64,000 nucleotides of DNA from a candidate division WOR-3 bacterium (lineage in GTDB: Bacteria > Hydrothermota > 32-111), in contig JBBFKX010000002.1 in the NCBI GenBank assembly GCA_037481815.1, positions 169,663 to 233,662 on the forward strand, written 5' to 3'. Under the pieces are notes generated by a model. That model was not told the origin of the DNA. It made no database searches and saw only the letters and a list, made by a program, of their open reading frames with translations. Positions 5,042 through 64,000 of this stretch are shown here, one piece after another. Numbering within the stretch: position 1 is the first letter of the stretch; the number at the start of each line of letters is the position of its first letter. A program made the position numbers and the translations under genes.

Positions 5042-7750
5042 CTATTCAAAAATTGATATCCAGTTTCTTGCTGCTTCTATCGCTTTTGCGCTCTTCTGTG
5101 CAAATTCTGATTCAGGTGAATTCTTTACAACAAAATTCCACCTTTCCATAGCTTCCTTAATATATCCTTCCTTTGCTATTATCTTTGCAAAATTGAAATT
5201 CGCTTCAGGATTTGCGGGATCTATTTTTAGAGCGTTTTGATAAGCATCCTTTGCAACATCAAAATTTTCGATCTCCTGACAGACCGAACCTATTCTTAAA
5301 AATGCTCTGAGGTTGTTTGGATCAATCTGAACAATTCTTGTATAGATCTGAATAGATTTTTCAAAATCCTCGACTAATTCATAGATCGTTGCAAGTTCCC
5401 ACAAATAACCAAGATTCTCTACATCTTTACTTATCAACGATTCAAGAATTTTGATCGATTCATCGTACATTTTCATACTTCTTAAAACTATCGCTTTTTT
5501 GTAAAGGATATCTAGATTCTCTGGATCCTTATTCAGGATTCTTTCGTATATTTCGAGTGCATCCCTATCTCTTCTCTGACTGACATATATTTCAGAGAGA
5601 TTCGTTAGAGTTTCAATATTTTCAGGATCCTTTAAAAGTATCTCACCGATAATTTTTATCGCCTCTTCAAGGTTTCCATTTTTCCAGAGTAACATCGAAT
5701 ATAGATTCAAAACATCTATTTTATTTCTATCCTTTTCAATTATCTTTGAAAGATATTCTATCGGTTCTGAATAGATCCCTTTGTTATAGAGTAGTTTGGA
5801 GAGTTTTAAAACCACTTTTTCGTTAAGAGGAGAGAGCGAAACTATTTTTCGATAATACTCTTCTGCTTCTCCATAGATCTGTTTTATATTGTAAACATCA
5901 GCGATTATTTCAAACATTTCCACATCGCACTCATCTTTTCTTACAACTTCAAAAGCACTCTGTGAAGCAAGATCATATTCACCCTTTTCAAAATATTCTT
6001 TTGCTTTTTTTCTCTTCTCCTCAAGTTGATCGACTTCCTTTAATTTAAGATCCTCTTTTTCAAAAGTATCCTCTGTTTCCTCTTCAAAAACACCTGTAAA
6101 AATATCTGAACTCTTCTCTTCTCCGATTGTGAAACCTTCTAGTTGTTCTGATGATGTAACCTGAACATCCTTTGACAGACTACCACTTATCAAAACATCC
6201 ACTTTATCTGCGTAATAGTCAAGTCCAAGTTTATATCTTGTCTCAACATAATAGGGATTAAGTTTTAATGCTTCTTTCGTATATTTGAGTGCATCCTCAT
6301 ACCTTCCAACTTTTGTTAAGGTGAAAGCAAGGTTGTAGTATGCCTCAGCGAAATTTTCATCATACTGGATCGCTTTTTCAAAAACTTTTATCGCATCCTC
6401 AAATTTTCCTTCCTCTCTATAGATTATTCCAAGATAATTGTATGTTAAAGGATAATCACCTTTTATCTCAAGAACTTTATCGATATATTTTTTCGCCTCT
6501 ATAAAATTTTTATTTTCGATAAAGATTATCGATAGATTCAAAAGAGCATCAACATAATCATCCCTTATCTGTAAAGATTTGTTAAACATTTTTAATGCTT
6601 CATCCGTCTTATTTTTATGAAGCATTGCGATTCCAAGGTTATTGTATGCCATCACATATGATGGATCCATCTTTATAGATTTATTATAACAATCTATCGC
6701 ATTTTCAAGTTCACCTTTTCTGTGAAAAGCGATACCCATATCGTTGTACGCTTTTGCTGCAAACGATTCATCTTTAAGTGCAAGTTTGTATTCCTCTATC
6801 GCTTTATCGTTTTCTCCAAGAAGAAGATAGATCTCACCGATCTGAATGTGAATCAGCGCTCGATCCGGCTCAACAGATTCAGCCTTCTTAAACTCTTTTA
6901 GCGCTTCATTGAAAAGCCCTTTGTTCCGAAAACCAATTCCAAGTGTAAAGTATGTTAAAAAACTGTTCGGTTGAATCGAAACATTCGATTCTTCCTGAAC
7001 AAAACTCTGATACATCCCCTGCTGATAAAAATCTATTCCAAGGTTTGCCTGTGTTTTTCCGTAAGCGGGATTCAACTTAATCGCTTTTTTTGTTTCCTTA
7101 ATCGCGTCATCAAAAAGCCCTTTCTCTCCATAAACAAAGCCCAAAAGAAAATGTGCTTCAGCAAGGTTGGGATCGAGTTCAAGAGCTTTTTGGAATTCTT
7201 TTATAGCAGAATCAAGTATTCCCTTGTTATAGTAAACCTCACCAAGCATCGAGTGTATTTGAGCTGAATCGGGCTGTGTTTTTAAAGCTTTTCGATACTC
7301 TTCGATCGAATCATCATACATACCTAAAGATTTATATATCTTCGCAAGGTTCAACCTCGCATCAACAAATGATGGGTTACTCTTTAAAATCTTCTTATAC
7401 TCAGCGATAGCATCAAGCGATTTTCCCATGTTGTTCAAAGCTTCTGCAAGTTTAAACCTTGTGTTCAAATCTTCGGGATTCTTTTCAAGAACTTCTCTGT
7501 ACTCTTTTATCTTTTCATCATACATCCCTGTTTCTTTGTAGATGAGTTCGAGATTCTTTTTCGCCAGGGTAAATTTCGGATCTATCGCAAGTGCTTTTTC
7601 AAGTTCTTCAATCGCTTCATCATAAAGACCTTTGTTGTAATACACAACAGCAAGATTGTTGTGTGCACCAGCATCCTTTGGATCTATCCTCTGGGCGAAC
7701 GACTTTAAAACTCTCTTTTCTGCTTCAGATATTTGAACCTGTTTTTTCAT
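5042..7750 (-). CDS. Large TPR-repeat protein, 902 aa, two TPR arrays separated by an acidic linker
   Basis: Dozens of 34-aa TPR units (..AHNNLAVVYYNKGLYDEAIEELEKALAIDPK.. and others). An acidic low-complexity linker (..EEETEDTFEKEDLKLKEVDQLEEKRKK..) splits the two arrays. Only 5 nt separate it from cheC upstream. Confidence 0.8.
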   Translation of the reverse strand: MKKQVQISEAEKRVLKSFAQRIDPKDAGAHNNLAVVYYNKGLYDEAIEELEKALAIDPKFTLAKKNLELIYKETGMYDEKIKEYREVLEKNPEDLNTRFKLAEALNNMGKSLDAIAEYKKILKSNPSFVDARLNLAKIYKSLGMYDDSIEEYRKALKTQPDSAQIHSMLGEVYYNKGILDSAIKEFQKALELDPNLAEAHFLLGFVYGEKGLFDDAIKETKKAIKLNPAYGKTQANLGIDFYQQGMYQSFVQEESNVSIQPNSFLTYFTLGIGFRNKGLFNEALKEFKKAESVEPDRALIHIQIGEIYLLLGENDKAIEEYKLALKDESFAAKAYNDMGIAFHRKGELENAIDCYNKSIKMDPSYVMAYNNLGIAMLHKNKTDEALKMFNKSLQIRDDYVDALLNLSIIFIENKNFIEAKKYIDKVLEIKGDYPLTYNYLGIIYREEGKFEDAIKVFEKAIQYDENFAEAYYNLAFTLTKVGRYEDALKYTKEALKLNPYYVETRYKLGLDYYADKVDVLISGSLSKDVQVTSSEQLEGFTIGEEKSSDIFTGVFEEETEDTFEKEDLKLKEVDQLEEKRKKAKEYFEKGEYDLASQSAFEVVRKDECDVEMFEIIADVYNIKQIYGEAEEYYRKIVSLSPLNEKVVLKLSKLLYNKGIYSEPIEYLSKIIEKDRNKIDVLNLYSMLLWKNGNLEEAIKIIGEILLKDPENIETLTNLSEIYVSQRRDRDALEIYERILNKDPENLDILYKKAIVLRSMKMYDESIKILESLISKDVENLGYLWELATIYELVEDFEKSIQIYTRIVQIDPNNLRAFLRIGSVCQEIENFDVAKDAYQNALKIDPANPEANFNFAKIIAKEGYIKEAMERWNFVVKNSPESEFAQKSAKAIEAARNWISIFE

Positions 7751-7755
7751 TCAAC

Positions 7756-8373
7756 CTACCTGTTTAAAAAATCGAGAAGTTTCTTTAAAGATATTGGATC
7801 AGGCAAAAGTATTAGATACCCTTTTAACGGATGTGGATCATCCTCAAAAGTGAACTCTGTTTCAACACAGAAAACAACATCCTTGTTCGCACTGAAATCG
7901 ATGTATGCTGAAGTTACTACAGCTGATCCTATATCAATCACAAGATTTGGAACCGATGGTAAAATCAACATGTTCAAAAAATCACTCATCGCTGTAAGAT
8001 ATGAACTTATAACTATGTTTGCAACTTCTTTGATCGCTGATTGTTCTATCTCACTTAAAATCGTTGTCGTTCCAACAGGTTTTCCCATAACCATATCGAC
8101 AAGAAGCATCGATTCATCTCTTGGAAATATCAAAAGTGTTCTACCTGTTAAATCTCCAAGAAATTTCACAAGAACACCTGTTACGATCTCGTCCTGGTTA
8201 TTGATTATCCTGTATATCTCTTCTGAAGATATTATGTGAACTTTTGGAACCGAGACCATTACTCTTTTGTTCACAAGTTGTGAAAGAACGGTCGCAGCAT
8301 GTCCTCCACCAATGTTGGAGATCTCTTTGATTCCATCCAGATGAAAATCTTTTAAGTTGTTAAAATCTATCAT
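7756..8373 (-). CDS. cheC: CheC-family CheY-P phosphatase
   Basis: 205 aa with two CheC-type motifs: DGIKEISNIGGGHAATVLSQL and SEIEQSAIKEVANIV. 3 nt downstream of cheA. Confidence 0.8.
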   Translation of the reverse strand: MIDFNNLKDFHLDGIKEISNIGGGHAATVLSQLVNKRVMVSVPKVHIISSEEIYRIINNQDEIVTGVLVKFLGDLTGRTLLIFPRDESMLLVDMVMGKPVGTTTILSEIEQSAIKEVANIVISSYLTAMSDFLNMLILPSVPNLVIDIGSAVVTSAYIDFSANKDVVFCVETEFTFEDDPHPLKGYLILLPDPISLKKLLDFLNR

Positions 8374-58875: not shown

Positions 58876-59798
58876 CTCTCCATAAGTTTCATAAAATAAT
58901 CTTCAAGAGAAAACTCTCTTGGAATAAAGGAAACTATTTTACCACCATTTTCATTTACAATCTTCACAATTTCTGAAGCAACATCTTCTTTTTCAATTGT
59001 GATAAAAACTTTTTTTTCATGAATAGAGAAAAATTTAGAGATCTCTTTAAACTTTTTAATTTTTTCAAGAATTTTTTCGTTTGAAAATATTTCAATATCG
59101 ATCTCTTTGATTTCCCGCTTTATGATCTCATGAACATAACCTGTTCCAACTATCTCTCCTTTGTTGATCACACAAACTTTGTCGGCGATCATTTCAATAT
59201 CGGGGAGAATGTGCGTAGAAAATATGACTGTCTTGCCTCTTTTTTTCGCTGTCAGTATTATATCTTTAATATCTTTTCTTCCTATAGGATCAAGTCCTGA
59301 CATCGGTTCATCGAGTATCAGAAGTTGTGGATCGTTTATCAGAGCAACAGCAATTCCAAGACGCTGAACCATACCTTTTGAAAAAGTTCCAACTTTTGAA
59401 TTCATGCTATTTTCAAGTCCAACAAGTGAAATCAAAGTTTTAATCCTGTCAGATAAAATCTGTTTTTTAATGTTAAACAATGTACCAATATGTTCAAGTG
59501 TCTCATACGCAGTTAAAAAAGGATAGAATGATGGATTTTCAGGCAGAAATCCAATCTTTTCTCTGACACTTTTTTCAAAAATGTTTTTTCCAAATATTGA
59601 AACTGTTCCTTCTGTTGGTTTTAAAATTCCCATGATGATTTTTAAAGTTGTTGACTTCCCCGCACCGTTTGGACCAAGAAATCCAAAAATTTCATTATCA
59701 AGAACATCAAAACTGATACCTTTTAAAGCAAGAAAAGTTTTGAATGGGAACTGTGTTTTATAAATCTTTTTTACATTTGAAATTTCTAAAATTTTCAT
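58872..59798 (-). CDS. ABC transporter ATP-binding protein
   Basis: 308 aa. Walker A (GPNGAGKSTT), ABC signature (FSKGMVQRL), Walker B (LILDEP). Confidence 0.85.
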   Translation of the reverse strand: MKILEISNVKKIYKTQFPFKTFLALKGISFDVLDNEIFGFLGPNGAGKSTTLKIIMGILKPTEGTVSIFGKNIFEKSVREKIGFLPENPSFYPFLTAYETLEHIGTLFNIKKQILSDRIKTLISLVGLENSMNSKVGTFSKGMVQRLGIAVALINDPQLLILDEPMSGLDPIGRKDIKDIILTAKKRGKTVIFSTHILPDIEMIADKVCVINKGEIVGTGYVHEIIKREIKEIDIEIFSNEKILEKIKKFKEISKFFSIHEKKVFITIEKEDVASEIVKIVNENGGKIVSFIPREFSLEDYFMKLMER

Positions 59799-59811
59799 AT
59801 TTTTTATTATA

Positions 59812-59845
59812 GCAAAAAAAAGGGGCTTTGAAAAGCCCCTTTATA
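59812..59845 (-). terminator. Rho-independent terminator downstream of the first pilin gene
   Basis: Perfect hairpin AAAGGGGCUUUUCAAAGCCCCUUU on the minus strand, followed by U8. Located between the pilin stop (59866) and the ABC ATPase start (59798). Confidence 0.65.
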
Positions 59846-59865
59846 CAAAGTTAAAAAATTAATTT

Positions 59866-60288
59866 TTACTCTGTTGTTCCAGGTGTTAAAATAAGATCAA
59901 CCAAAGTATCTTTTCCAAAACCTGTTATCTTGTAATCCTGTCCTGCTGCTGCTCCACCATCAGGGTTTGGTGTTTCATAACCAACAATACCCTGTGCATT
60001 AGCTTCAGCTAACCAAACATATGCTCCCCCATCACCTACTGCCTGTGTATATGGATTTTTGAAGTTCTGTGGGAGGTAACTTGCTGTAACATCTGTCTGT
60101 GGATAAACACCACCTGAATCTACAGAAATTGTCTCAATTGCAACCTGGAAAGTGTGCATGTTTGCTTTGACTGAAGATATTTTTGCTTTGTCAATGATCT
60201 GAACAAAGTTTGGTATCGCTATTGCAGCAAGAATACCAATGATGACCACGACGATCATGAGTTCGATAAGTGTAAAACCTTTTTTCAT
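59866..60288 (-). CDS. Type IV pilin / pseudopilin (prepilin-type N-terminal cleavage/methylation domain)
   Basis: 140 aa. MKKGFTLIELMIVVVIIGILAAIAIPNF is the class-III signal peptide G|FTLIE motif. GGAGGA RBS. Confidence 0.85.
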   Translation of the reverse strand: MKKGFTLIELMIVVVIIGILAAIAIPNFVQIIDKAKISSVKANMHTFQVAIETISVDSGGVYPQTDVTASYLPQNFKNPYTQAVGDGGAYVWLAEANAQGIVGYETPNPDGGAAAGQDYKITGFGKDTLVDLILTPGTTE

Positions 60289-60319
60289 TTTTCCTCCTTG
60301 TTTTAGGTTTACTTATCTT

Positions 60320-60338
60320 GTAAACAAATTTTATACCA
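60320..60338 (-). promoter_or_regulatory. Weak sigma-54-like -24/-12 element upstream of the first pilin gene
   Basis: Minus strand reads TGGtataaaatTTGTt, i.e. TGG-N8-TTGT against the consensus TGGCAC-N5-TTGC. About 35 nt upstream of the ATG. Confidence 0.3.
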
Positions 60339-60388
60339 AATCTAACTTTCAATTTTTTATTGATTTATTAAAAACTCAAAGAACAAAA

Positions 60389-60407
60389 CTTTTGCATTTT
60401 GCAAAAA
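60389..60407 (-). promoter_or_regulatory. Palindromic upstream element, candidate enhancer-binding-protein site
   Basis: cTTTTGCAttTTGCAAAAa, an inverted repeat TTTTGCA/TGCAAAA, about 100 nt upstream of the pilin-1 start. An identical 17-mer recurs upstream of pilin-2 (60888..60909). Confidence 0.45.
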
Positions 60408-60809
60408 TCAAAAAAGATGTGTAGCTGGTGTCAATTCAAGTAAAGTTGAATCGGTATCTTTCCCATAACCAGTAATTCTATAAAAATCAAAAGAACCTTC
60501 ATATTCAACAACACCTTCAATATTAGTTTCCTCCGCATTCTGTATCGCAGGTGAAAGATTACTGTAAGGATTTTTGAAATTCTGTGGTAAAGCATCAACA
60601 AAACCTTCAATGTTTGGGAAATATTCAAGATATGTTTTTTCTGCTGCCTTTGTCTCAACTGTCATCTGAGTTGTATGCATATTTGATACTACACTTGCTG
60701 CCTTTGCCCTGTCAACTAGTTTATAAAAATTGGGGATTGCAATCGCTGTTAATATACCTATTATTACAACAACGATCATCAGTTCAATAAGCGTAAAACC
60801 TTTTTTCAT
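60408..60809 (-). CDS. Type IV pilin / pseudopilin, paralog of 59866..60288
   Basis: 133 aa. MKKGFTLIELMIVVVIIGILTAIAIPNF. The N-terminal 30 aa are nearly identical to the downstream paralog while codon usage differs, so this is an old duplication. Confidence 0.85.
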   Translation of the reverse strand: MKKGFTLIELMIVVVIIGILTAIAIPNFYKLVDRAKAASVVSNMHTTQMTVETKAAEKTYLEYFPNIEGFVDALPQNFKNPYSNLSPAIQNAEETNIEGVVEYEGSFDFYRITGYGKDTDSTLLELTPATHLF

Positions 60810-60821
60810 ACAAAAAATATA

Positions 60822-60837
60822 AGCAAAAAATATTCCA
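60822..60837 (-). promoter_or_regulatory. Sigma-54-type promoter (-24 TGG / -12 TTGC) upstream of the second pilin gene
   Basis: Minus strand reads TGGaatatttttTTGCt, with exact consensus spacing (TGG-N9-TTGC; GG-N10-GC). About 15 nt upstream of the ATG. Confidence 0.5.
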
Positions 60838-60887
60838 AAGATAAGTTATTATTTTTTAATATTTAAATAAAATTCGAAAAGATTTTC

Positions 60888-60909
60888 CTTTTGCATTTTG
60901 CAAAAAAGT
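60888..60909 (-). promoter_or_regulatory. Second copy of the TTTTGCATTTTGCAAAA palindrome (candidate UAS)
   Basis: Identical 17-mer about 80 nt upstream of the pilin-2 start and about 55 nt upstream of its sigma-54 element. Confidence 0.45.
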
Positions 60910-60949
60910 AAAAAATTTTTCTTTCTTTTTTTTCTTTTAATGTTATAAT

Positions 60950-62071
60950 TTGTTTATGAAAAAAATTTTACTCATGACATTTTCTAATATAAAATCGGAT
61001 TCCAGAGTTTTAAGATACATTAAATCTTTCGATGAAACTTACACTGTTTATCTTATCGGTAATGGAGATTTTTTGCCTGAAAACAAAAATCTTATCTATA
61101 TCAACATAAATTATAAATCAAGAAGGAAAAACAAGTCGATTTTTGAGTTTTTGTATTACAATTTCTATTTGAAATTTAAAGCATTTGTACTTATAAAACT
61201 CATCAAGCCAGATTTTATACATTCAAACGATTTTGAAACATTTCTTCCATCATATCTTGCATTTTTGAATAAAAAAAATAAACTGATATATGATTCACAT
61301 GAGATCTGGTGTGAAAGAGCAGGTGTAAAGAAGAATATTATTATAAAAATTCTCAATTATTTTGAATATTTGCTTGAAAAATCTTTTACAAAAAAGATCA
61401 GGTATTTTATTACAGTTTCTGATTCGATCAAACTTTATTTTGAAAAAAGATATAAAATCAAAAATCTTTATGTTATCAGAAATGTCCCAACTTTTTTTGA
61501 TAACAACGAGATTGAAAAAAATATTCTTGATTCTGTTAAAGATGAGAAAAGGTTGAAATTTGTTTATATCGGTCCATTATCTTATGAACGGAATATTCCT
61601 TTTTTGATAGGTATCTTTAAAGATTTTGAAAACGATTTTCATTTAACTTTAATCGGGAAAAATTTTTTAAAATTACCAGATTACCAAAATATAAAAATTT
61701 TTGATAACATAGATGAAAATAAAGTAATTCCAACTTTAAAGTTTTTCGATATCGGTGTTCATCCTTTAAAACTTGATAACCTAAATCATAAATTTTCTTT
61801 ACCGAACAAAATTTTTCAATATATGGCATCATCCCTTGCATTGTTCGTTTATGAAAATCCCGAAACTTTAAAAATTATAGAAAAATATAAAAATGGTTTC
61901 ACTGCCGATTTTTCAGATCATAAAAATGTTGCTGAAAGATTGAAACTCTTCCAGAAGACAGACATCAAAAGAATGAAGGAAAATTCATATAGAGGTTTTT
62001 TAGAAGAGTACAACTGGGATAACGAAAAAAAGGTTTACCAGAAGATACTTAAAAAAATTACAAATCTTTAA
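60950..62071 (+). CDS. Putative GT-B-fold glycosyltransferase
   Basis: 373 aa on the plus strand, the only such gene in this neighbourhood. The C-terminal region (..HKFSLPNKIFQYMASSLALFVYEN..) resembles the E-x7-E region of GT4-like enzymes, but the match is weak. Confidence 0.5.
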   Translation: MFMKKILLMTFSNIKSDSRVLRYIKSFDETYTVYLIGNGDFLPENKNLIYININYKSRRKNKSIFEFLYYNFYLKFKAFVLIKLIKPDFIHSNDFETFLPSYLAFLNKKNKLIYDSHEIWCERAGVKKNIIIKILNYFEYLLEKSFTKKIRYFITVSDSIKLYFEKRYKIKNLYVIRNVPTFFDNNEIEKNILDSVKDEKRLKFVYIGPLSYERNIPFLIGIFKDFENDFHLTLIGKNFLKLPDYQNIKIFDNIDENKVIPTLKFFDIGVHPLKLDNLNHKFSLPNKIFQYMASSLALFVYENPETLKIIEKYKNGFTADFSDHKNVAERLKLFQKTDIKRMKENSYRGFLEEYNWDNEKKVYQKILKKITNL

Positions 62072-63410
62072 TATTGTAATATCTGATTTTTCTATAAAGA
62101 GTTGATAGATTTATTCCAAGTGCCACACTTGCCTGTTTTTTATCGTAGTTAAAATATTTTAAAGTATCCTCAATAAGTTTTTTTTCAACATCTTCGATTT
62201 TCTGTGGAACAAAAACTGCCTGATCGGTTTGAACTTTTAAACTCGAAAGTAGTGGAATATCCGATTTTTTTATTTCAAAATTATCTTTTATCACTATTAT
62301 CCTTTCAACTATATTCATAAGTTCTCTTACATTACCAGGCCAGGAATATTCGGTTAAAACATTATAAACTTCCGGGTCAACCTTTTTTATAGTTTTGCCC
62401 ATCTTTTTTGAATAGTAGTCAACATAGTAATCAAAAATCTTTGGAATATCTTTCTTCCTTTCTCTTAAAGGCGGAAGATCTATCCTTACAACATTCAACC
62501 TGTAAAAAAGATCCAATCTGAATCTATTATTTTTTACTTCTTCATCTATATTTTTATTGGTTGCTGATATTATTCTGACATCAACAGGTATCGGTTCTGT
62601 TGAACCAACTGGAACAACCTCTTTTTCCTGTAAAACTCTCAGAAGTTTTGCCTGAAGAACAAAGTCCATCTCAGATATCTCGTCTAGAAAAAGTGTTCCC
62701 ATATCAGCGACCTTGATTAGTCCATCCTTATTCGTGTATGCACCTGTAAAAGCACCTTTTTTGTAACCGAAAAGTTCACTTTCTATAAGATTCGGATTCA
62801 ATGCAGCACAGTTGAAAGAAACAAAGTTTTTGTCTCTTCTTTTTGAGTTGTTGTGTATCATCCTTGCGATCAACTCTTTTCCTGTTCCACTCTCTCCAGT
62901 TATCAGAACCGTTGAGTCAGTTTTTGAAATATCGTTTAAGTTCTTTAAAATAATTTTGATCTTTTCATCCTCTCCAATAAAATCTGATGGTATTTGAAAA
63001 TTTTCCCTTTCTTTAAGATAGATGTAGTTTAACTTCTCATCCCTATTCTTCAAAGCCCTATCCACAATCTCGACAAGATAATCAGAATCCTCAACCTTTT
63101 CGAGAAAATCGAAAGCACCATTTCTGAGAGCATCGAGCAAAAGTTCCTGTGTTTTTCCAAATGCGGTTATAAGGATAACATTGACGATTGGATCTATCTC
63201 CCTTAGCCGTTTTAAAAGTTCTATTCCCGACATCTCTTTCATCTTTATATCAGATATCACAAGATCGATGTTCTCGTTTTTGAATTTTTCCAAAGCATCC
63301 TCGGGGCTTGTTGTAAATGTGGTTTTGTATCCCAAATTTTTTAGTTTGTAATCAAGAACTTTACATCTGTTCAGATCATCATCAACTATAAGAATATGAT
63401 ACTTATTCAA
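62058..63410 (-). CDS. Sigma-54-dependent response regulator (NtrC/PilR family: REC + AAA+ + HTH)
   Basis: 450 aa. Receiver (ILIVDDD..LVISDIKM), sigma-54 interaction domain (GESGTGKELIARMIHNNS, GAFTGA, ESELFGY) and a C-terminal Fis-type HTH. Confidence 0.9.
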   Translation of the reverse strand: MNKYHILIVDDDLNRCKVLDYKLKNLGYKTTFTTSPEDALEKFKNENIDLVISDIKMKEMSGIELLKRLREIDPIVNVILITAFGKTQELLLDALRNGAFDFLEKVEDSDYLVEIVDRALKNRDEKLNYIYLKERENFQIPSDFIGEDEKIKIILKNLNDISKTDSTVLITGESGTGKELIARMIHNNSKRRDKNFVSFNCAALNPNLIESELFGYKKGAFTGAYTNKDGLIKVADMGTLFLDEISEMDFVLQAKLLRVLQEKEVVPVGSTEPIPVDVRIISATNKNIDEEVKNNRFRLDLFYRLNVVRIDLPPLRERKKDIPKIFDYYVDYYSKKMGKTIKKVDPEVYNVLTEYSWPGNVRELMNIVERIIVIKDNFEIKKSDIPLLSSLKVQTDQAVFVPQKIEDVEKKLIEDTLKYFNYDKKQASVALGINLSTLYRKIRYYNIKDL

Positions 63411-64000
63411 TGTTCCTCCTGAATTTCAAAGTAAATTCAGTATAACCTTTTTCGCTTTTAAAATCAATCTCTCCTGAATGTTCATCTTTCACGATCTTGT
63501 AAACTATCGAAAGTCCAAGTCCAGTTCCTTTCGTCTTGTTCGTTGTAAAAGGTTGAAATATTTTTGCTTTTAAATCTTGATCAATACCTTTTCCATTATC
63601 GATGAACTTTAAAACATCGTATCCATTTTCCCGCTCATACACAACCTTCACAACACCATTTTCAAGACCATCTATTGCATCAAAACTGTTATCAAGAAGG
63701 TTTATAAAAACCTGTTTAAGACCTGTTCTTTCAGCAAAAATCATAGCATTTTCAAAATTTTCAAATCTTACCTTTTTATATTTTTCATCACACAGAAAAA
63801 GTTCTCCTAAAAACTCCTTTAAATTTATAAGTGTTGGTTCGATTTTTCTTACTCGAGCATATTCAAGAAACTGGTTCACAAGTAAGTTCAACCTTTCGAC
63901 CTCTTCGAAAAGAATGTTGAACATCGGATGAGACCTGTATTCATCTTTTAGTTCCCCAAGAAGAATCCTGGCACTCTCTTTTATGTTCGAAACAGGATTT
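63403..64000 (-). CDS. Sensor histidine kinase, C-terminal part (gene runs off the window end)
   Basis: HATPase_c motifs (NLLDNSFDA.., DNGKGID, GTGLGLSIVYKIV). Overlaps the start of the downstream NtrC-like gene by 8 nt. The track gives 63403..63924, but the reading frame stays open to the window end. Confidence 0.7.
   Translation of the reverse strand, partial: NPVSNIKESARILLGELKDEYRSHPMFNILFEEVERLNLLVNQFLEYARVRKIEPTLINLKEFLGELFLCDEKYKKVRFENFENAMIFAERTGLKQVFINLLDNSFDAIDGLENGVVKVVYERENGYDVLKFIDNGKGIDQDLKAKIFQPFTTNKTKGTGLGLSIVYKIVKDEHSGEIDFKSEKGYTEFTLKFRRNIE

Follow-up and report, generated by a model that had tools for sequence, protein, structure and literature searches.

Control of pilin genes by the sensor kinase PilS, the response regulator PilR, and sigma-54 is known mainly from Proteobacteria and their relatives. 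In enteric bacteria, the NtrC enhancer at glnAp2 has the sequence TGCACCA-N3-TGGTGCA, a 17-base-pair (bp) site of 7-N3-7 form that is bound by a dimer of an activator with a Fis-type helix-turn-helix (HTH). The pilR gene of Geobacter sulfurreducens immediately precedes an RpoN-dependent pilA promoter (PMC2725144); the PilR sites reported for Pseudomonas aeruginosa consist of a NifA-like TGT-N11-AGA together with GTCT elements (PMC6058289); and in Desulfovibrio vulgaris, the sigma-54-dependent response regulator DVU2114 binds a species-restricted motif, mapped by experiment, ahead of pilin genes (PMC3333781). In this study, we analyzed a stretch of 64,000 nucleotides (nt) from a candidate division WOR-3 bacterium (contig JBBFKX010000002.1; the whole stretch is called the window below), in which two tandem type IV pilin genes, pilA2 and pilA1, are each preceded by a copy of the palindrome TTTTGCATTTTGCAAAA and by a sigma-54-type -24/-12 element, close to genes for PilS and PilR. 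The comparison with described systems supports the placement of this locus within the well-known PilS/PilR/sigma-54 control of pilins, with a recognition motif that appears to be new and a host from an uncultivated phylum. We know of no earlier description of the upstream motif TTTGCA-N3-TGCAAA, and a literature search returned no description of pilin regulation in WOR-3.

The palindrome is probably a PilR enhancer that activates sigma-54 holoenzyme at each of the two pilin promoters, the locus as a whole forming a PilS/PilR/sigma-54 pilin switch. Exactly two exact copies of the 17-mer occur in the window (60390-60406 and 60889-60905); when up to two mismatches are allowed, there are three matches against 0.21 expected, the third being an overlapping, shifted copy, and none of 100 shuffles reached three. 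The core TTGCA-N3-TGCAA has two matches against 0.04 expected, at the same two places. From the end of the palindrome to the ATG, the distance is 101 nt at pilA1 and 80 nt at pilA2, and from its center to the T of TGG, it is exactly 60 nt at both genes, with both centers at about -86 from the predicted start site when the -12 base is set as position -12. The joint pattern of palindrome, a gap of 48 to 54 nt, and TGG-N8-TTG yields two matches in the window against 0.00 expected, both at pilin genes; TGG-N8-TTGC alone is unspecific (nine matches against 3.4 expected). With respect to position (~80 to 150 bp upstream), conservation together with the promoter, and specificity for the regulon, the palindrome has the properties of a dyad-symmetric, enhancer-type site.

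The spacing of the promoter elements, TGG-N8-TTGC, corresponds to the canonical sigma-54 spacing of GG-N10-G(C/T). Set against the consensus TGGCAC-N5-TTGCW, with GG and GC 10 nt apart, the pilA2 element conforms, and the pilA1 element does so only in part, having GT at -12. No sigma-70-like promoter was predicted upstream of either gene. An earlier note on this DNA, made by a model from the letters alone, had described tandem pilin paralogs, each with a palindrome some 80 to 100 nt upstream of the start codon, and this description stands: the two proteins are 49% identical, match N_methyl, and both carry the prepilin N-terminal methylation motif. The note was also right that the 17-mer occurs twice, as an exact search of the window confirmed, that a -24/-12 element lies between palindrome and ATG, and that this element is exact at one gene and degenerate at the other (GC against GT at -12). 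Its details needed correction: the palindrome ranges of 60389..60407 and 60888..60909 were a few bases too wide, the elements move from 60822..60837 and 60320..60338 to 60823-60837 and 60324-60338, and the proposed spacing of TGG-N9-TTGC has no match there, N8 being the correct one.

We compared the locus with contigs carrying PilR orthologs at 57 to 95% identity and with the results of one scan of a genome collection for the layout pattern. The palindrome and -24/-12 layout was found upstream of pilin genes at 15 promoters in nine lineages, namely, the window, L003 (same as L006), L121 (WOR-3 UBA6260), L201, L116, L202, L005, L132, and L098. The consensus of the palindrome is TTTGCA-N3-TGCAAA, with nearly invariant TGCA cores, and it is kept in the pilA2-type promoters of the first eight of these lineages; a palindrome directly 3' of the pilA2 stop codon, as in the window, is also present in L003, L116, L202, L005, and L132. 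The distance from the palindrome center to TGG is 57 to 60 nt in 13 of the 15 promoters and 67 nt at pilA2 of L202 and L005. At pilA2 of L003, there is an extra overlapping half-site at 66 nt, and at pilA1 of L132, a second palindrome lies 18 bp upstream of the main one. The -24/-12 elements vary from TGGAAT/TGGAAC to the full consensus TGGCACGCTATTTGC of L005; those of the pilA2 type in relatives begin with TGGAAC, TGGCAT, or TGGCAC, followed by N5-TTGC (TTGT in L201), while the -12 part at pilA1 is retained as TTGT in L003 and L132 and reads ATGT in L116 and ATGC in L202 and L005.

The noncoding sequence surrounding these elements has diverged across the nine lineages, and regulator identity goes down to 63% among the six lineages with the regulator on the contig. 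In an alignment of six pilA2 upstream regions, invariant columns fall at the palindrome, at a TTAAGT-like block ~30 nt upstream of TGG, at the TGG and TTG of the promoter element, at the ATG, and at the divergent glycosyltransferase gene's -10 box; elsewhere, the sequences differ. Within the window, the palindrome segments (19 nt) of the two pilin promoters are 95% identical, with 17 of 17 palindrome bases matching, the -24/-12 blocks are 71% identical, and the spacers are 57% identical against 38% by chance, which indicates that the two promoters share ancestry. Given this common ancestry, the repeated motif could be viewed as a neutral leftover of the tandem duplication of the pilin gene, without a function of its own, but we regard this as extremely unlikely: all palindrome bases match even though the pilins are only 49% identical, so that the palindrome was held fixed while the proteins diverged, and motif and offset persist in lineages whose regulators are 63 to 86% identical and whose flanks have diverged.

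The genes around the promoters fit the PilS/PilR/sigma-54 switch. In the window and in L001, a public contig that matches the window without a difference across 14,135 nt (100% identity) and continues past its end, the gene order is pilB-pilB-pilT-pilC-pilS-pilR, a divergent GT4 glycosyltransferase gene, pilA2, and pilA1, followed on L001, 3' of the pilins, by a pair of ABC transporter genes and a prepilin peptidase gene. The regulator pair is thus linked to pilB, pilB, pilT, and pilC upstream and to two N_methyl pilins and the peptidase downstream. PilR shows the complete architecture of a sigma-54 enhancer-binding response regulator, with an invariant D54 in the receiver domain, a GAFTGA loop in the AAA+ domain, and a C-terminal Fis-type HTH in the alignment of orthologs. 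The protein falls below every NCBIfam equivalog cutoff, the top-scoring models being NtrC and AtoC, and the name PilR is therefore based on context; its closest relatives are annotated as candidate division WOR-3. On L001, the complete PilS is a protein of 513 amino acids with the PF25323 6TM_PilS domain, as are its orthologs with respect to this domain, in keeping with a role as partner kinase.

In the related DNA examined, the layout is confined to pilin loci. The genome-collection scan, which used a palindrome/gap/-24 pattern, gave at least 119 matches, mostly chance ones scattered over unrelated taxa; among the matches listed, four have a pilin downstream, and all four show a good -24/-12 element and lie at WOR-3-like loci. 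A PilR-guided scan of metagenome contigs found one close relative (L006) and 71 generic NtrC-family loci (35 to 53% identity), none near pilin genes. Pfam matches bear out the NtrC-family sigma-54 activator and the histidine kinase that the earlier note had placed at 62058..64000, and its reading of the locus as PilS/PilR-sigma-54 control of pilins gains support from the conserved layout of the 15 promoters in nine lineages and from the gene content. The occurrence of the palindrome at many unrelated loci, which the note had named as a finding that would speak against this reading, was not seen: across ~190 kb of related loci, copies with zero or one mismatch are found only at pilin promoters.

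Several observations weigh against this reading: (i) in 5 of the 15 promoters, pilA1 of the window included, GT takes the place of GC at -12, a departure from the consensus; (ii) no RpoN box was detected in the open reading frames (ORFs) of the window or in 1.49 Mb of fetched loci, a null that is uninformative because only small fractions of the genomes were covered; (iii) distant PilR orthologs (57 to 62% identity) have no pilins next to pilR, which has a Wzy_C protein and unrelated genes downstream, and these loci were of no use for footprinting; (iv) the palindrome can also be read as two direct TGCAAAA repeats, and the binding mode is therefore ambiguous; (v) the recognition helix of the PilR HTH is invariant in all orthologs, which leaves no covariation test of HTH with motif; and (vi) TAnnnT-like hexamers stand 6 to 7 nt before the pilA2 ATG in four of six lineages, a possible sigma-70 leaderless promoter overlapping the -12. 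With regard to the second point, the intact GAFTGA activator would imply that RpoN is encoded in the genome; a literature search found no paper linking WOR-3 and rpoN. With regard to the fourth, L003 and L098 have a third TGCA core at 7-bp periodicity in some promoters, so that, together with the direct-repeat reading, more than one binding stoichiometry is conceivable.

The identity of the binding protein deserves separate consideration, as the palindrome might be bound by another regulator (an enhancer-binding protein, a repressor, or a nucleoid protein recognizing TGCA-N3-TGCA), with PilR acting elsewhere or on another sequence, and the PilR sites of P. aeruginosa, with their TGT-N11-AGA and GTCT elements, are indeed different (PMC6058289). 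The site is tied to PilR only by position and conserved linkage, the HTH being too conserved for covariation. Binding by another regulator nevertheless seems unlikely to us: the fixed distance from the site to the -24/-12 element in 15 promoters is an enhancer geometry; PilR is the only enhancer-binding protein in the loci examined, encoded 1.2 to 2.5 kb from the site in the six lineages with both genes on the contig; and the 17-bp 7-N3-7 palindrome shares the geometry of classical NtrC sites.

In the proposed PilS/PilR/sigma-54 switch, each of the two tandem pilin genes would have a separate enhancer-dependent promoter. PilS, as a six-helix membrane sensor, would phosphorylate PilR at D54, upon which PilR dimers would bind the palindrome with their Fis-type HTH and come together as the active AAA+ ring; the DNA between palindrome and -24 would bend, and ATP hydrolysis, via the GAFTGA loop, would remodel the sigma-54 holoenzyme at the -24/-12 element. 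Since the enhancer is only ~60 bp from the -24, a sharp bend would be needed, and a protein that bends DNA might bind at the conserved, AT-rich TTAAGT-like block; the counterpart of this block in the window, TTTAAATATTAAAAAAT, may be a DNA-bending site or one for a protein like integration host factor (IHF) or HU. The IHF consensus WATCAANNNNTTR matched the conserved mid-block by eye only with one or two mismatches, and an IHF site is not claimed. Of the two transcripts, that of pilA1 would have a leader of ~24 nt, in which a strong Shine-Dalgarno (SD) sequence directs translation, and that of pilA2 would most likely be leaderless or have at most 3 nt ahead of its start codon.

The switch may reach beyond the two promoters. 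The pilA2 palindrome and the glycosyltransferase promoter share one intergenic region, in which a TATAAT at 60943-60948 precedes the glycosyltransferase ATG (60956) by 7 nt, and the corresponding ATTATA block is invariant in the six-region alignment; as the distance from this -10 box to the palindrome hardly varies, PilR binding could affect the glycosyltransferase gene too. The location of this gene, with pilR on one side and the pilin genes on the other, points to glycosylation of pilin as a possible role. Downstream, the terminator scan found the sole canonical terminator of the pilin unit after pilA1 and none between pilA2 and pilA1, so that pilA2 transcripts may read into pilA1.

The lack of another terminator between the two pilin genes, together with the location of the 60390-60406 palindrome 1 nt past the pilA2 stop codon, where a 10-bp stem and then a U-rich stretch can form, would also suit an RNA hairpin acting as a weak intrinsic terminator or stabilizer 3' of pilA2, the copy upstream of pilA2 being a remnant of duplication. 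We consider this very unlikely. The predicted stems reach -5 to -9 kcal/mol, with z values from -0.4 to -0.7 for three of the four folds tested (window and L003) and of -2.3 for L005, whereas the genuine pilA1 terminator is far stronger (-14.8 kcal/mol, z = -3.2); the palindrome was not detected by the terminator scan and does not qualify as an intrinsic terminator; the tail past the hairpin is not U-rich in relatives; and the other copy lies between divergent genes, with nothing there to terminate. The copy next to pilA2 may still act as an attenuator in a secondary capacity. A search of 59700-61100 against Rfam gave no family above threshold, and its weak matches fall on the pilA1 terminator.

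The pilA2 promoter is unusual in its closeness to the start codon, a feature that the earlier note had passed over: the C of the -12 is at 60823 and the ATG at 60809, with 13 nt between them, and upstream of the gene there is no SD sequence and no in-frame start codon. With transcription starting ~12 nt past the -12 base, the pilA2 leader would be ~2 nt. The distance from -12 to ATG is 13, 13, 14, 13, 13, and 13 nt in six lineages, over unrelated spacer sequences and without an SD; the exceptions among pilA2-type genes, L116 and L132, have leaders of 25 to 31 nt with an SD. Genes of the pilA1 type always have leaders of ~22 to 40 nt (33 to 51 nt from the -12 base to the ATG) with a strong SD, and a clear SD is found at about half of the window genes. 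Either an SD-less distance of 13 to 14 nt or an SD-bearing leader is the pattern that a leaderless pilA2 mRNA predicts. We therefore put forward, as a serious possibility toward which we do not yet lean, that the sigma-54 promoter starts transcription at or within ~2 nt of the pilA2 AUG, giving a leaderless mRNA, and that relatives switch to an SD leader by a short indel. No sigma-54-driven leaderless transcript has been described to our knowledge, and a literature search for sigma-54-dependent leaderless transcripts found no description.

The TAnnnT-type hexamers 6 to 7 nt before the ATG in the window, L201, L202, and L005 could instead mean that most pilA2 transcription comes from a sigma-70-type -10 element that overlaps the -12 region (TATATT, 6 nt, ATG), with the sigma-54-like element vestigial or modulatory, and the neighboring glycosyltransferase and ABC genes do use TATAAT 6 to 9 nt before their start codons. 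This arrangement of the flanking genes, which lacks an SD and is conserved in relatives, indicates that leaderless initiation appears to be in local use. As the main source of pilA2 transcripts, a sigma-70 promoter is nonetheless improbable: L003 and L121 have no good hexamer, there is no -35 element or TG extension and the sigma-70 scan was null, and every promoter of the pilA2 type, also the two that have long leaders, retains GG-N10-GC and the palindrome.

L201 (3792-3822) and L116 (~715-745), which belong to the same cave-sample series, have near-identical promoter regions that differ by an indel of ~18 nt. The indel contains the SD (AAGGA), leaving a 13-nt SD-less form in L201 against a 31-nt leader in L116, and the -12 base also differs (TTGT in L201 and TTGC in L116). 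L116 (DYMB01000007.1) is labeled Acetofilamentum sp. (a Bacteroidaceae genus), yet its locus has 24% G+C and, in both pilin promoter and pilin, hardly differs from the WOR-3-type locus of L201; the label is probably a taxonomic mislabel, or the contig is misbinned.

Among the flanking genes, the glycosyltransferase gene has its TATAAT 6 to 7 nt before the start in the window (60943-60958, plus strand), L003, L121, L201, and L202, the start codon being GTG in L003 and L121. At the ABC gene past the pilA1 terminator, an extended -10 box, TGCTATAAT, is invariant in four lineages (window, 59798-59814, minus strand; L003; L005; L202) and stands 6 to 9 nt before the ATG; the gene lacks an SD there and looks like the source of a conserved sigma-70-type leaderless transcript.

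The features of the locus are collected in Table 1.

Table 1. Coordinates of genes, promoter parts, and other elements at the pilin locus (window positions)
Feature	Position	Strand	Remarks
Palindrome upstream of pilA2, TTTTGCA-TTT-TGCAAAA	60889..60905	.	Proposed PilR site in the divergent glycosyltransferase-pilA2 intergenic region
Palindrome upstream of pilA1, identical to the pilA2 copy	60390..60406	.	Starts 1 nt past the pilA2 stop codon
pilA2 -24/-12 element TGGAATATTTTTTGC, GG-N10-GC	60823..60837	-	Predicted start site ~60811; ATG 60809
pilA1 -24/-12 element TGGTATAAAATTTGT, GT instead of GC at -12	60324..60338	-	Predicted start site ~60312
AT-rich block TTTAAATATTAAAAAAT, midway from palindrome to -24	60851..60868	-	Aligns with the TTAAGT/TTAAAT block of relatives; partly invariant columns
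pilA1 Shine-Dalgarno sequence AAGGAGG	60293..60299	-	Inside the predicted ~24-nt leader
pilA2	60408..60809	-	Type IV pilin, 133 amino acids (MKKG/FTLIELM); N_methyl and TIGR02532 matches
pilA1	59866..60288	-	Type IV pilin, 140 amino acids; N_methyl match
Intrinsic terminator closing the pilin unit	59819..59842	-	GGGGCTTTTCAAAGCCCC, then a T run; -14.8 kcal/mol, z = -3.2
Glycosyltransferase gene, GT4 family, divergent, between pilR and pilA2	60950..62071	+	ATG at 60956
pilR	62058..63410	-	NtrC-family response regulator, 450 amino acids; Pfam Response_reg, Sigma54_activat, AAA_lid_14, HTH_8
pilS, 3' part	63403..64000 (window end)	-	HisKA and HATPase_c by Pfam; the gene leaves the window

The G+C content of the window is ~31%; its minus strand carries all but two of ~55 genes, and the GC skew is negative throughout (-0.08 to -0.29). 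On the plus strand, antisense to pilA1 (60137-60225), the element TGGTATCGCTATTGC, which is the antisense of the conserved codons at the pilin N terminus, has a degenerate palindrome, ATTGCAACCTGGAAA, 67 nt upstream; neither L005 nor L202 showed this combination, which is probably due to chance. In more distant WOR-3 loci (L078-L081, L203, and L080, ~6330-8190 each), pilR is followed directly by a protein of ~607 amino acids with Wzy_C (O-antigen-ligase-like), which stands where the GT4 gene sits in the window lineage. L132 (71-1882) has a 603-amino-acid ORF of similar size, and then two pilins with the same promoters; the Wzy_C protein and this ORF may be pilin glycosylases of the TfpO/PilO kind. 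In L004 (PilR 64%), pilins are absent, and the 540-nt gap after pilR is filled with repeats (7400-7680), namely, two arrays of 7-nt repeats (CATACGG/CACACGG) around a G+C-rich stretch.

For a phylum in which experimental genetics is all but absent, the present results provide a concrete regulatory motif and a promoter layout, both backed by comparison, and with these defined, the WOR-3 pilin regulon becomes predictable directly from metagenome-assembled genomes. The pilA2 promoter abutting its start codon offers a natural test of whether functional leaderless mRNAs can arise from sigma-54 holoenzyme, with built-in controls in pilA1 at the same locus and in the SD-led variants of L116 and L132. 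If the leaderless proposal is true, one activator would serve two pilin paralogs that are tuned by different routes of translation initiation.

Compared with the pilB-pilT-pilC-pilS-pilR-pilA clusters of G. sulfurreducens and Myxococcus xanthus, whose pilA promoter is RpoN-dependent, the WOR-3 locus has the same order of assembly ATPases, platform protein, PilS, PilR, and pilin, and it likewise has the activator gene directly upstream of its target and a pilin with a -24/-12 promoter. The differences are several: (i) the WOR-3 locus has two pilin paralogs, each with its own enhancer and promoter; (ii) a divergent glycosyltransferase gene stands between pilR and the pilins; and (iii) the host is an uncultivated WOR-3 bacterium, the motif is TTTGCA-N3-TGCAAA, and one promoter abuts the start codon. 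The palindrome resembles the NtrC enhancer of glnAp2 in being a 17-bp 7-N3-7 site upstream of a sigma-54 promoter, which by analogy would be bound by a dimer, whereas half-site sequence and regulon differ; most WOR-3 promoters have a single site at about -86, and glnAp2 has several at -100 to -140.

In P. aeruginosa, pilSR and pilA are arranged differently, and there is a single major pilin. The WOR-3 locus shares with the P. aeruginosa PilS/PilR system the pairing of a six-helix membrane kinase and an activator of the NtrC family, as well as activator sites upstream of a sigma-54 pilin promoter (PMC6058289); unlike the PilR sites of that species, the WOR-3 motif is a TGCA-based palindrome. 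As with DVU2114 of D. vulgaris, an enhancer-binding response regulator goes together with a motif upstream of pilin genes, binding being a prediction in WOR-3, and whereas DVU2114 controls Flp/Tad-type pili, the WOR-3 system comprises type IVa-like pilins with PilB/T/C. Taken together, these comparisons suggest that PilS/PilR/sigma-54 control of pilins extends to WOR-3, a lineage related to the Fibrobacteres-Chlorobi-Bacteroidetes (FCB) group, with a different recognition sequence.

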